From Acidobacteriota bacterium (GTDB lineage: Bacteria > Acidobacteriota > Terriglobia > Terriglobales > SCQP01): a DNA stretch of 64,000 bases. Position 1 is the stretch's first letter. Each line of letters starts with the position of its first letter. Shown one piece after another: positions 38,691-42,490 of the stretch. The stretch lies in NCBI GenBank assembly GCA_027314025.1, contig DAHVCP010000050.1, positions 5,753-69,752 of the forward strand. Direction: 5' to 3'. The notes under the pieces were generated by a model. It searched no databases. It saw only the letters and a program-made list of their open reading frames with translations, and was not told the DNA's origin. The position numbers and the translations under genes were made by a program.

Positions 38691-38962
38691 GAGTGCGGGC
38701 GGCCCGCGGGCCGCGGCAAACCGGGGTGGATGGGCCTACAGCCCACGCTAGCATTCACCGCCGCTGGTTGCGCCTGCGCGGCGATGGTAGAGCCGTTTCC
38801 TGGCCGCGCGGGCAGGCATGGCTTGGGTACCGGCGCCTGGCGCCCGCCGGCCGCGGCAACTTGGAGCGGCCCAAAGCGCCGGCGGGCATCCGTTGCCGGC
38901 CGGCGCAACCCGGGGTGGGGAGCCCGGGGTGGGGAGCCAGCCACAGCGCCGCGACTCGGCCT

Positions 38963-39089
38963 CCAAAACTGAGCGGTTGAGCCGCCGACGAGGCCGGGGC
39001 GGCGTGCGGGCGCGCGCAGGCGCCGGGTCGCTCGCGGCTGGCCGCGGACAGGAGGACCGGCGAGCCAGAGGCCGGGTATTGGTCTAATT
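38963..39089 (+). repeat. Left copy of a ~127-bp direct repeat bracketing the KaiC-like cassette
   Basis: CCAAAACTGAGCGGTTGAGCCGCCGACGAGGCCGGGGCGGCGTGCGGGCGCGCGCAGGCGCCGGGTCGCTCGCGGCTGGCCGCGGACAGGAGGACCGGCGAGCCAGAGGCCGGGTATTGGTCTAATT aligns base by base with 42363-42490. Confidence 0.85.
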
Positions 39090-39183
39090 GGGAATCCCCA
39101 CCACTCCGCCACCCACCTGCCCTCTATTTATGCGAAGGGCCTGACCGCAACCGCTTCTCCCGCCCGGCAACCTCCAGGACCCA

Positions 39184-40698
39184 TTAGCTTGCATCCACCG
39201 TCCCTGGGTGCTCCGAGGGCCCGTCCGGCGATGCGGGTCGGTCCGAGTGAATGGGGATGCCGCTGATCAGGCCCTGATAGTGGATGAGGCGCTTGCCGAG
39301 AATCACCACGCCCTTAGACGTGATCTCATACTCGCGAATATCCTTGGCGTGATTGCCGCCCCGCATCTTGATCACCACGAGAATCTTGCGAAGCTGGCCA
39401 TCGATGGACACGTACCGGAGCCGGACGATGTCGTCGGCGAGAAAAGAAATTGAGTAGGTGCTGAACGGGAACTCAGTAAACGACTCGTCCACTTCCACCG
39501 TGCTCAGAATCGTCACCCCAATTCCCGTCAAAGCGAAGATCATGCGATAGAGCGATTCGCGAAAGTCGGCACGGAAGCCTGGCGACAGAGCCATTTCAAA
39601 GCCAGCCAGCGAATCAATGACCAGACGCTTGGCGCCAATCTTCTGCACGGCGTCGAGGATCGAGTGCATGGTCTCATCCACGGAGAGATCCAGCGGACGC
39701 AAATAGAGGATCTCGAGCTTTCCTTCCTTTTGCGGCGTTTCCAGATCCAACCCTAGGTTGGCGGCCCGCTCCGCGTAGGCCTGCGGACGCTCCTCAAAGA
39801 CGGCCACGATTCCCGACTCTCCTTGGCGTAGGCCCTCGGCAATGAATTGGGTTGCCAGGACCGATTTCCCGGTTCCCGAAGGCCCGGCTACGAGGACGCT
39901 GTCGCCTTCGCGAACGCCGCCACCGAGCATGTTGTCCAACTCGGGAACCCCGAAGCAAAGACGCCTATGGCTGGGCGGATTCCTCACGCGTCCAGTCAGC
40001 CCGAACGTGCGCGAAAACGCCTGCACGCCGGCCTCGGTAATTCGGAAGGTGTGCAGTCCCGGCACGGAATTCTGGCCGCGCAGTTTGATAATCTGCAGCT
40101 TTCGTACGATTGAGTTCCGCTCCGGCGTCTGACGCAACCAGAACAGCCCATCGGCGACGGTGAATATGGGATTGTCGTGCAGCTCGTCCTCGGCATATTC
40201 GCCGATCAGAAACGTTGTCGCCTGCCAGCTGGCCAAGAACAGCGATAACCGTTGAATGAACGATTGCAGGCTGATATCACTCAACGGCTTCCGCGCCATG
40301 GTTCGGAAGGAGTCGACGACTACAAATGCGGGATTGAACCGTTCAACCTCCGCGGTAATCCCATTCAAGACCGCGCCCAGGTCACCATCTAAGACCACCT
40401 GGCTCAGATTGAGGAAGCGAATGGTCCCCGGCAGCTTGGCTGGATCGAAAAAGGTGTACTGTTGCTGGTATCGCAGCATCTTGATGGCAGACTCGCCGAG
40501 GACGGTGAAGTAGAGCGCGGGCTGCGCCGGAGTGGCGTTGGCGAAAACAAATTGATGCGCCAGCGTCGTCTTGCCGCTGCCTGGTTCTCCCGCGATGATG
40601 TTGAAGGAAAATTCTGGGAGACCGCCCCCCACAATCTCGTCAAGCCCCGGAACGCCGGTAGATAATTTGCGGATCGTTACTTTGTCTTGGGTGCTCAT
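39184..40698 (-). CDS. KaiC-like double RecA-domain ATPase
   Basis: Two KaiC/RecA-like domains with Walker A motifs GEPGSGKTTLA and GPSGTGKSVLA, Walker B-like VVVDSF and LVIDSL, and the C-terminal KMRGGNHAKDIREYEI block. Start MSTQDK; ATGA overlap with the upstream ORF. Confidence 0.85.
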   Translation of the reverse strand: MSTQDKVTIRKLSTGVPGLDEIVGGGLPEFSFNIIAGEPGSGKTTLAHQFVFANATPAQPALYFTVLGESAIKMLRYQQQYTFFDPAKLPGTIRFLNLSQVVLDGDLGAVLNGITAEVERFNPAFVVVDSFRTMARKPLSDISLQSFIQRLSLFLASWQATTFLIGEYAEDELHDNPIFTVADGLFWLRQTPERNSIVRKLQIIKLRGQNSVPGLHTFRITEAGVQAFSRTFGLTGRVRNPPSHRRLCFGVPELDNMLGGGVREGDSVLVAGPSGTGKSVLATQFIAEGLRQGESGIVAVFEERPQAYAERAANLGLDLETPQKEGKLEILYLRPLDLSVDETMHSILDAVQKIGAKRLVIDSLAGFEMALSPGFRADFRESLYRMIFALTGIGVTILSTVEVDESFTEFPFSTYSISFLADDIVRLRYVSIDGQLRKILVVIKMRGGNHAKDIREYEITSKGVVILGKRLIHYQGLISGIPIHSDRPASPDGPSEHPGTVDAS

Positions 40699-41150
40699 GC
40701 TTTTCTCGCGTGCTCGGAATGGTAATCGTCGAGGGCTGCCCCTGGCCACGCAACCCGCAGCAGGCTCAAGGTCAAGGCGTCGCCAAGAAATGTAACAAGC
40801 AGGCAGAGTAGGCGAGCGATGAGGACGCGTCCTCCCTCGTCCGCCGGGGACTCGGCAGCCTGATCGTTGTCATTCTTCATTGGATGGCCATACTCGCCCA
40901 GACCCTGCAGTGACCCGTCTCCCGCAATCCGGGCCGCGCTAAGGCCGGGAGCTTCCGTTTGGGCCAGCGTCAAGGCGCGGGCAGCGAACGCTTGAAAACC
41001 CGCGATGCCCGCAAACTCGCTCACGCCCTGGCGTAGCTTCTCGTAGACGCGAAGCGCTGCAGGCTCCGAGGGCGCGGGGAGCGGGTTAGCGGCGGCTTCA
41101 TAAATGAGAAGACGACGGGCTAAATCTCGCATTCCCGGGGCGACCGTCAT
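40695..41150 (-). CDS. Hypothetical helical protein, paralog A of the KaiC-associated pair
   Basis: 151 aa, collinear with the N-terminal ~135 aa of the 231-aa ORF upstream (RDLARxxxxxEA..RVYExLR..GFQAxAARALxLA..LIAxLLxLxxTFLGxAxTLxL). Its stop overlaps the kaiC-like start. Confidence 0.65.
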   Translation of the reverse strand: MTVAPGMRDLARRLLIYEAAANPLPAPSEPAALRVYEKLRQGVSEFAGIAGFQAFAARALTLAQTEAPGLSAARIAGDGSLQGLGEYGHPMKNDNDQAAESPADEGGRVLIARLLCLLVTFLGDALTLSLLRVAWPGAALDDYHSEHARKA

Positions 41151-41297
41151 GTTGACACGTGGTGCAAGGCAGATGCGCTCATTTGCCGTTATCGGCCTCG
41201 TAGGTGGATCGGGGCGGCGCGTCCAGCCTGCCGCAATCGCCCGCGACCGTGAGGTGCGCCGCCTCCAGAGCCGCTCTGGGTACCGTGCGGGCGGAAC

Positions 41298-41993
41298 TCA
41301 ATGCACATAGCCATCGGCGGGCGGGAGCAGTGCGTCTTGCAGGGGGCCGCCAGCCTTGCTTTTGATGAGCGTGAAAACATCCAGCACCGTGGCAATGCTG
41401 TGAATGTTTCCCGCAACACTCAAGAGTCCCTCCTCCATCCCGGGGTACCGGGCCGCGAGGGCTGCAATATGCTCACCCACGCTCCTCAGCTGGTCAATGT
41501 CCACAAGAAGGTCGCCGAAAGCCGTAGCCGTTGCTGGTCCATCGGCAGCTGCCCCGACGACCGCGTCCGCTGCGGTGGTGGCCGGTTCTGCCGGGATGTC
41601 AGCCTGAAGGTGCAAATCGTCAATCAAATGCAGGGTTGTCGCCTCGCCAAGGAAGGTGAGAAACAGCCCGAGCAGCTGTGCAATCAGAGCGATGCCGGCC
41701 TCGCGATACGCATCCGCATCCGTCGGGGACTCAATTTCTTCCAGACCGCGCAAGGTGCCATTTGCCGCAACCTGGGCGGCGTTGAGGCGGGGTGATTGCC
41801 GCTTCGCTAGCGCCAAGGCACGAGCCGCGATCGCCTGAAAGCCGTCAGCACCCATGGTTGAGCCAAGCTGCCGACGCAGCGCCTCATAGACGCGCACCGT
41901 TGCGGGTTGGGCGCGCAGCGTGGTCGTACCGGCATCGGCCTCGCAAACAACGAAGCTGCGGGCCAAATCGCGCGTTTTGTCGGGTGGCGGCAT
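41298..41993 (-). CDS. Hypothetical helical protein, paralog B (with ~95-aa C-terminal extension)
   Basis: 231 aa with an AGGAG RBS before the ATG. Homologous to the 151-aa ORF. No family recognised. Confidence 0.7.
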   Translation of the reverse strand: MPPPDKTRDLARSFVVCEADAGTTTLRAQPATVRVYEALRRQLGSTMGADGFQAIAARALALAKRQSPRLNAAQVAANGTLRGLEEIESPTDADAYREAGIALIAQLLGLFLTFLGEATTLHLIDDLHLQADIPAEPATTAADAVVGAAADGPATATAFGDLLVDIDQLRSVGEHIAALAARYPGMEEGLLSVAGNIHSIATVLDVFTLIKSKAGGPLQDALLPPADGYVH

Positions 41994-42106
41994 CGCTCCT
42001 ATTCCCTGCTTTCACGCCGCGGCTCGCTTTGCACCTGAAGCGTTTACCGCAATGGCACTCCCATGCCGGCAGCTCCGGCAGCCAGACCCTCGAAATATGC
42101 CATTGC

Positions 42107-42135
42107 AATCTATCTTGGCATCAGCCAGGAGTCAA
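42107..42135 (-). promoter_or_regulatory. Sigma70-like promoter candidate for the KaiC-like cassette
   Basis: Minus strand TTGACT (42135-42130), 17-bp spacer, TAGATT (42112-42107). Immediately followed by a 9-bp inverted repeat (42098-42106 / 42049-42057). Confidence 0.35.
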
Positions 42136-42162
42136 TGGCTGAGCAAAAGTGAACCTCCGGCC

Positions 42163-42330
42163 GCAGGGGTCGCGCCGTTTGCACCTAGGCCAAGTCGGCG
42201 CGAAAAGGCCGCGACATTGCCTGCGCGCCCACGGCGCGCGGAAGAAGGCCGCGGCTCGCCTGAGCCAGCGCAGCGGCGCGGCCCCCAGCGACGCGTAAGC
42301 GGGGCAGCGCCCCGCGCCCGTCAATAGCGG
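42163..42330 (+). repeat. Dispersed repeat, family 1 (degenerate long form)
   Basis: Starts GGGGTCGCGCCGTTTGCACCTAGGC (compare 47524 GGGTCGCGCCGTTTGCACCTGGGC). Ends ..GACGCGTAAGCGGGGCAGCGCCCCGCGCCCGTCAATAGC. Confidence 0.65.
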
Positions 42331-42362
42331 TGCCGAGGCCCTCGTCCCCGGCCCCGCAGCGG

Positions 42363-42490
42363 CCAAAAATGAGCGGCTGTGAGCCGCCGGCGAGGCCGAG
42401 GCGGCGTGCGGGTGTGCGCAGGCGCCGGGTCGCTCGCGGCTGGCCGCGGGCAGGATGACCGCCAAGCCAGGGGCTGGGAATTGGTCTAAT
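42363..42490 (+). repeat. Right copy of the ~127-bp direct repeat bracketing the KaiC-like cassette
   Basis: CCAAAAATGAGCGGCTGTGAGCCGCCGGCGAGGCCGAGGCGGCGTGCGGGTGTGCGCAGGCGCCGGGTCGCTCGCGGCTGGCCGCGGGCAGGATGACCGCCAAGCCAGGGGCTGGGAATTGGTCTAAT. Ends 6 nt before the OYE start codon. Confidence 0.85.

Follow-up and report, generated by a model that had tools for sequence, protein, structure and literature searches.

KaiA, the cyanobacterial activator of KaiC autophosphorylation, is a small, mostly helical and non-enzymatic protein that is encoded just upstream of kaiC and works in dimeric form on the hexamer of KaiC. Many bacteria other than cyanobacteria have KaiC homologues too, which raises the question of how these are regulated where KaiA, and often KaiB, is missing. 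Makarova, Galperin and Koonin (mBio, 2017) are said to have portrayed archaeal KaiC-like ATPases as signal-transduction hubs that stand beside varied small uncharacterised partners. KaiC-like proteins of environmental Pseudomonas physically bind a neighbouring PAS kinase and response regulator, and the conserved neighbours reported there by Terrettaz et al. are kinases, response regulators, an exopolysaccharide (EPS) sortase and CsrA/RsmA, with no small helical upstream protein among them (bioRxiv 10.1101/2022.01.26.477890). Here we analyse a 64-kb stretch of DNA from an acidobacterium of the Terriglobales (contig DAHVCP010000050.1, assembly GCA_027314025.1; the whole stretch is referred to as the window), in which two small helical proteins, B and A, are encoded ahead of a KaiC-like ATPase. 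A and B are diverged tandem paralogues from a large, unannotated family whose defining property is its partnership with one subfamily of KaiC-like ATPases. The cassette belongs among the known KaiC-like signalling modules, to which it adds an undescribed partner family, and is not a categorically new system.

The three genes are tightly packed on the minus strand and are arranged as follows (lengths in amino acids, aa):

41610..41993, minus strand: gene B, shared helical core, residues 1-128 (from BLASTP against A, family alignments and the AlphaFold model)
41298..41609, minus strand: gene B, paralogue-specific tail, residues 129-231 plus stop (from the AlphaFold model and conservation within the B family)
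40695..41150, minus strand: gene A, 151 aa, core domain with a short conserved 'WPG...' C-terminus, as in single-copy relatives
39184..40698, minus strand: KaiC-like double-domain ATPase, 504 aa, matching PF06745 twice, with an ATG that overlaps the TGA stop of A (ATGA)

Gene B as a whole runs from 41993 to 41298 on the minus strand and encodes 231 aa. An earlier note, made from the letters of the window alone, had described a paralogous pair of open reading frames (ORFs) at 40695-41993, and both are present there on the minus strand; independent, deposited gene calls (GCA_027314005.1, contig DAHVCO010000004.1) contain identical 231-, 151- and 504-aa products. The resemblance of A to B is significant, with 45% identity and 62% positives over 124 residues in a pairwise BLASTP alignment (E=1e-16), and all five collinear blocks quoted in the note fall within this alignment. 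The core common to both proteins spans residues ~1-128, or about 125 aa: the sharing and the helical character that had been proposed for it are upheld, while the proposed length of ~135 aa was slightly too great. Beyond the core, B carries the additional tail that had been put at ~95 aa and that measures ~100 aa (residues ~129-231), with strong conservation inside the B family, whereas A continues into a short 'RVAWPGAALDD...' segment and then ends.

That an ATPase adjoins this pair had also been seen; its identity as a member of the KaiC family had not been recognised. PF06745 matches two stretches of the protein (E=1.1e-72), two P-loops can be read in its sequence (GEPGSGKT and GPSGTGKS), and a comparison with solved KaiC structures in the Protein Data Bank (PDB) gives a full-length match (E=3e-61). 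The ORF was listed as 40749..39184, and the start most likely lies at 40698, giving 504 aa, because an in-frame ATG at that position overlaps the TGA stop of A (gcATGAgc). In common with clock KaiC, the ATPase has two RecA-like domains with Walker A motifs, the 'EE' pair of catalytic glutamates in CII, serines at the S431 and T426 positions, and an A-loop-like motif (LISGIP, conforming to 'ISGxP'). It differs from clock KaiC in falling below the NCBIfam equivalog cut-offs (NF006799 / TIGR02655: 245 versus 408 bits and 162 versus 546), in having Phe at the T432 position, so that the S431/T432 phosphorylation pair of the clock is missing, in reading 'VLGES' (by eye) where the CI domain of KaiC has its twin glutamates, and in having neither kaiA nor kaiB next to it. 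Judged from these features of its sequence, it is a KaiC-like protein and not a bona fide clock KaiC. The retention of the CII catalytic glutamates, the S431-equivalent serine and the A-loop-like segment suggests the layout of a regulatable autokinase, and the CI domain may have an altered ATPase chemistry. By eye, the CI position reads 'VLGEP' in the homologue from Paracoccus.

Family and ATPase are found together with great regularity, and comparative genomics gives strong support to a functional link between them. Across 84 Terriglobales loci the gene order B, A, KaiC-like is kept in every locus that is long enough, at identities of 83-90% for the KaiC-like protein, 61-70% for B and 48-65% for A. 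A broader set of 168 loci, which includes 80 metagenome loci from an alignment of distant members, contains 136 with at least 400 nt of downstream sequence; in 134 of these the KaiC-like gene comes directly after the last family gene, and the two exceptions have a KaiC-like gene too, with an odd ORF structure. The window's 4-nt ATGA overlap between stop and start codons is found again in 108 of 152 loci, and another 14 have an overlap of 17 nt. Partner and ATPase also travel together across phyla, since a Paracoccus plasmid pairs a family member with a KaiC-like protein 66% identical to that of the window. The earlier note had surmised a heteromeric accessory complex next to the ATPase and had left co-occurrence to be looked at. 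The co-retention of both paralogues in about 100 loci, together with the translational coupling, makes such a complex plausible, judged by gene arrangement. One Acidobacteriaceae locus (L008:6690-7100) has an internally deleted A, of which residues ~1-34 and ~126-151 are left, beside an intact B and a KaiC-like gene; this copy could be decaying or could be an assembly artefact.

The arrangement recalls KaiA in that A and B are small, helical and encoded upstream of a KaiC-like gene, the product of which has an A-loop-like segment. It differs in that there is no sequence relationship to KaiA, no KaiA among the Foldseek matches and no pseudo-receiver domain in A or B; furthermore, the family occurs in Acidobacteriota and on an alphaproteobacterial plasmid as opposed to cyanobacteria, and the C-terminal tail of the KaiC-like protein is not conserved. 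Homology to KaiA was rejected after hhalign of the family profile against Synechococcus elongatus KaiA, whose sequence was verified against PDB 5n8y, returned a probability of 0.2% and E=0.32. Nor do A and B show the thioredoxin-like alpha/beta fold or the KaiB Pfam signature that mark KaiB and the N-terminal domain of SasA: they are predicted to be nearly all-helical and match nothing in Pfam or NCBIfam.

The family is both large and unannotated. Neither A nor B matches any family at E<=1 in Pfam, NCBIfam, PHROGs or PADLOC, and 45 distant members gave scattered Pfam matches, each in one member and at E>=0.016. The family profile found 0 matches at E<=10 among PDB sequences. A phage collection contained no match, so that a phage origin was rejected, and a literature search for KaiC in Acidobacteria, or for a helical KaiC partner like A or B, turned up nothing relevant. 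The description of the pair as an unknown family has therefore stood up to the sequence libraries as well as to the fold comparison given below. In a protein collection clustered at 90%, significant relatives number more than 2,257 for B and 1,316 for A; among the 120 best listed for either paralogue, identities are 60-94%, nearly all lengths are near-constant, and no functional name is given. So many close homologues of constant length mark A and B as real genes that purifying selection maintains. A profile built from A and B, searched against 1.84 billion representatives, matched 2,464 clusters at 50% identity (E<=1e-3), 1,347 of them at E<=1e-10, and many of the top-scoring clusters are single-domain proteins of ~140-150 aa.

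The family is mostly acidobacterial. Among the best 80 loci in GTDB, where the contigs of one genome per species were searched, nearly all are from Terriglobales/Acidobacteriaceae (with Terracidiphilus, Silvibacterium bohemicum, Granulicella, Ca. Sulfotelmatobacter and Korobacteraceae represented), the sole exception being a bin labelled Solirubrobacterales. Where a source is named, the more distant members come from Pyrinomonadaceae and other Acidobacteriota. A reach beyond one lineage, which the note had missed, is established by Paracoccus liaowanqingii, in which a 310-kb plasmid carries a clear member (hhalign 99.9%), labelled 'hypothetical protein' by PGAP. This locus (L168; NZ_CP040765.1, 4109-7227) was the only plasmid match among 72,556 records.

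AlphaFold models built from the family alignments have a pLDDT of 70 and a pTM of 0.65 for A, and a pLDDT of 62 and a pTM of 0.49 for B. Both are nearly all helix, apart from a single small beta-hairpin and a loop that is acidic and disordered. The core helices of B are predicted at residues 6-21, 31-47, 49-66, 90-115 and 117-131, and its tail as a linker of low confidence (~129-152) that leads into two long helices, 153-182 and 187-214, paired as a hairpin. Foldseek found no neighbour in the PDB below E=2.6 for either model (best E 2.6-3.7); its matches to Bcl-2-like, chemoreceptor and ferritin folds have TM-scores of ~0.2 and are not meaningful. Conserved positions in the family are mainly hydrophobic, with a few Arg, Glu, Gly and Trp. 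Cys and His are not among them, and the median pI is low, at 4.8-5.3, with a net charge of -3 to -11. None of these properties hints at catalysis or at binding to DNA. They bear directly on the idea that the two are small DNA-binding or anti-sigma-like regulators merely co-transcribed with the ATPase, in which the pattern G-V-x-G-F-x-x-L-x-S-R-A-L would form a helix-turn-helix (HTH). An invariant Gly does lie between two helices, ahead of a conserved '..SRAL.LA' helix, and this combination loosely recalls HTH recognition helices, as a lead only. The helices in question, however, are 17-18 residues long, unlike those of a classical HTH, and the absence of an HTH or sigma/anti-sigma family match even at E<=1, the absence of a PDB fold match and the acidity of the proteins (pI ~4.8-5.3, net charge -3 to -11) all speak against DNA binding, to which we attach the least credence of any reading considered here.

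The same models help to judge whether A and B could be membrane-tethering subunits, with a hydrophobic helix (LIARLLCLLVTFLGDALTLSLL in A, LIAQLLGLFLTFLGEATTLHLI in B) that anchors the KaiC-like ATPase, and with the B tail on the far side of the membrane or lying along it. The maximum Kyte-Doolittle hydropathy over 19 residues is 1.8-2.1 in all subfamilies, above the classical threshold of ~1.6, and a conserved Trp-Pro, a pair often seen at membrane interfaces, follows the hydrophobic segment in A and in the single-copy relatives. The hydrophobic run is nevertheless just ~16-18 residues long and is broken by a near-invariant Gly and an acidic residue (FLGE/FIGE), often with a Pro after them, and in the models the segment forms the best-predicted bent helix pair (pLDDT ~80-85), as would be expected of a buried core helix. 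With a strongly acidic N-terminal flank, no signal peptide, acidic proteins overall and no match to a membrane-protein family, we consider tethering quite improbable.

Two architectures can be distinguished among the relatives. In the single type, one partner of ~145 aa precedes the KaiC-like gene, and a PAS-HisKA-HATPase kinase (domains confirmed as PAS_4+HisKA+HATPase_c), sometimes with a receiver, comes next; the Paracoccus plasmid locus has the family member, the KaiC-like gene, an HWE kinase and then a response regulator. The double type, found in Terriglobales, has a tail-bearing first gene of 200-230 aa, a second gene of ~145-150 aa and the KaiC-like gene; directly ahead of the three there is often a regulator of the cNMP_binding+HTH_Crp_2 kind. 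A kinase lies downstream in 12 of 13 single-type loci and in 12 of 64 double-type loci, whereas a Crp-type gene lies upstream in none of 26 single-type loci and in 47 of 79 double-type loci. The window is of the double type, and its cassette is flanked by housekeeping genes: to one side these encode an OYE-family oxidoreductase, PlsY and GpsA, to the other a PMT_2 glycosyltransferase and an amidohydrolase. The single-partner arrangement with a histidine kinase, which the earlier note had not seen, is probably ancestral because it is simpler and more widespread.

This distribution of neighbours also speaks for a reading in which A and B act downstream of the KaiC-like protein as its clients and do not regulate it, being either phosphorylation substrates or adaptors that carry its state to the Crp-type regulator through the hairpin tail of B: the tail-bearing type goes with Crp (47/79) and the tail-less single type never does (0/26), having the kinase instead (12/13). 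Candidate phosphorylation sites exist in the core, where the Thr of LTL is invariant and the Ser of LLSRAL nearly so. To our knowledge, however, KaiC-family proteins are autokinases and not kinases of other proteins, and the conserved Ser and Thr sit within predicted hydrophobic helices. Moreover, about a third of the double-type loci, the window included, have no adjacent Crp gene, and a stoichiometric subunit would account for the gene order and the translational coupling no less well than a client would. We think it unlikely that A and B are clients. From the correlation of the B tail with Crp-type regulators we speculate that the tail may join the module to that regulator.

The duplication that gave rise to A and B, proposed in the earlier note as a tandem event followed by divergence, is supported by BLASTP, by the tree of the core and by comparisons of the tail. 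Paralogue A retains the 'WP(G/D)' C-terminus of the single-copy relatives. The tail of B is homologous to that of the ~200-aa first genes in a distant second clade of the double type (tail-only BLASTP, E=1e-9 to 5e-16), and a tail shared by both double-type clades points to a single early duplication, with the hairpin added to the upstream copy.

The obligate position beside an oligomeric ATPase, the translational coupling to it, the joint retention of both paralogues and the signalling neighbours together favour a reading in which A and B, as non-catalytic subunits, attach to the KaiC-like hexamer and either regulate it or relay its state. The binding of operon neighbours by KaiC-like proteins in Pseudomonas offers a precedent, and we give this reading roughly even chances. 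The ancestral module would have consisted of one partner, the KaiC-like protein and a PAS histidine kinase. In Terriglobales the partner would have been duplicated, the downstream copy A keeping the ancestral 'WP' end and the coupling to the KaiC-like gene, and the upstream copy B exchanging that end for a linker and a helical hairpin. A and B would assemble on the KaiC-like hexamer, probably as a hetero-oligomer, and would control or signal how far it is autophosphorylated and how active its ATPase is, with the signal passing onward to the histidine kinase or the Crp-type transcription factor. Their role would thus resemble that of KaiA, KaiB and SasA-type partners of clock KaiC without any relatedness to them. 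What the sequences show is the paralogy, how large and how widespread the family is, its strict synteny, the start/stop coupling and the lack of any known domain; binding, heteromer formation and the direction of regulation are what we infer here from the arrangement of the genes and the character of the proteins. A bolder version, which we would rate as having a low probability, makes the family a class of KaiC regulators that has so far gone unrecognised: functional analogues of KaiA and KaiB, not homologous to them, that would drive or gate the phosphorylation and ATPase cycle of a KaiC-like hexamer in non-photosynthetic soil bacteria, with an asymmetric A/B heterodimer rewiring the output from kinase to Crp.

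Several observations weigh against the proposal that A and B are subunits acting on the hexamer. The models of the two proteins are of moderate confidence (pLDDT 70 and 62). Past the A-loop-like segment, the C-terminal tail of the KaiC-like protein is poorly conserved, which argues against a KaiA-style mode of tail binding. No kinase or Crp homologue is found next to the window's cassette or elsewhere in the 64 kb. The internally deleted A in the Acidobacteriaceae locus L008 may mean that an A/B heteromer is not obligatory, or that this particular copy is decaying. Finally, a neighbour-joining tree of the core makes first and second genes sisters within each double clade, in conflict with the shared tail, and would imply that duplication happened twice independently or that the paralogues, as they co-adapted, evolved in concert. 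The tail points to a single old event and the tree to two events or concerted evolution, each reading being drawn from sequence comparison.

With the architectures in hand, the cassette can be set against the other KaiC-like modules. It is like those of Pseudomonas in its double-domain KaiC homologue, in the absence of KaiB, in its reduced set of phosphorylation sites and in its likely non-circadian signalling role; the Pseudomonas operon with a PAS histidine or hybrid kinase has its exact counterpart in the single-type relatives. It differs in that the helical partner is the invariant neighbour here, and in that the lineage of the window has duplicated this partner and usually lacks the kinase. 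With the archaeal hubs it shares a KaiC-family ATPase placed beside small uncharacterised partners and signalling domains, although the archaeal proteins are mostly single-domain and have other partner families, whereas the partner here is bacterial and has no Pfam match. The A/B family is a concrete and testable candidate for the missing partner of non-cyanobacterial KaiC-like proteins in the abundant soil Acidobacteriota. A single partner with a kinase and a duplicated partner with Crp also form a natural experiment that could show how output is rewired. Should the partners prove passive or structural, they would still constitute a new domain family and improve the annotation of thousands of 'hypothetical proteins'.

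The composition of the cassette (39184-41993) is atypical, with a GC content of 0.58-0.63 and a GC content at third codon positions (GC3) of 0.66-0.73, against ~0.70 and 0.83-0.87 in the flanking housekeeping genes, a difference suggestive of horizontal transfer into this genome. A sibling metagenome-assembled genome (MAG; GCA_027315185.1, L171) has the cassette at the identical site, between OYE and PMT_2; flanks differ widely between genomes. Three MAGs hold 2-4 diverged cassettes each (L014/L045/L064/L082 in a Terracidiphilus MAG; L013/L034; L070/L078), at 72-91% identity for B and 60-95% for A, counts that assume clean bins; two copies face outward on one 14-kb contig. On the Paracoccus plasmid, the cassette is flanked by IS110, IS5 and IS21 transposase genes. 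Foreign composition, multiple copies and varied flanks make horizontal spread and paralogous expansion of the cassette likely.

Much of this could also describe a mobile defence or selfish module in which A and B would act as anti-phage sensors or effectors: the low GC3 relative to the flanks, the 2-4 copies in three MAGs, the varied surroundings and the plasmid copy between insertion sequence (IS) elements speak for one, and the ATPase has a weak PADLOC match to mad8 (E=1.6e-10). That match, however, is limited to the P-loop region (residues 279-332), and A and B themselves have no match in PADLOC, PHROGs or the phage collection. The recurrent neighbours are a PAS kinase, an HWE kinase, a response regulator and Crp, and not nucleases or other defence effectors, and the KaiC-like protein is very conserved (83-90% in Acidobacteriaceae and 66% across phyla), unlike fast-evolving defence genes. 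We regard a defence role as very improbable.

Around B and A, the following non-coding elements were noted on the same strand as the genes:

42107..42135, minus strand: sigma-70-like promoter candidate (TTGACT, 17 nt, TAGATT) upstream of B, a consensus match only
41994..42106, minus strand: leader of ~110 nt upstream of B, ending in an AGGAG ribosome-binding site, from 77 aligned upstream regions
41151..41297, minus strand: B-A spacer, 147 nt here and 149 nt in the median across loci, conserved in sequence
about 41279..41265, minus strand: hairpin CCAGAG-CGG-CTCTGG directly after the B stop, inside the B-A spacer

The position of the promoter candidate fits the start of the conserved leader, and the consensus scan of the region returned 3 sites where 0.6 were expected. 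Across about 77 Acidobacteriaceae loci the leader shows conservation of its nucleotide sequence. Rfam has no match for it and RNAalifold gives it no consensus fold; it could serve as an operator, as the target of a small RNA or in the control of translation. A search upstream of B for a palindromic operator of the Crp/FNR type found no enriched inverted repeat. RNAalifold gives no consensus structure for the spacer either, and the hairpin, which was specified by hand and is kept in related loci, has moderate support: 73.8% of cells are paired, a figure that falls to 31-41% on sliding the partners, and the covariation score is higher than in any of 500 shuffles. Lacking a T-run, the hairpin may act in processing, in stability or in partial termination, and so set the ratio of B to A. 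On the minus strand no terminator-like site was found after the KaiC-like gene, and one lies upstream of the promoter candidate, at 42388-42372. The cassette as a whole is flanked by two unusually GC-rich stretches that have no assigned gene, at 38691-39183 (0.74) and 42141-42454 (0.76).

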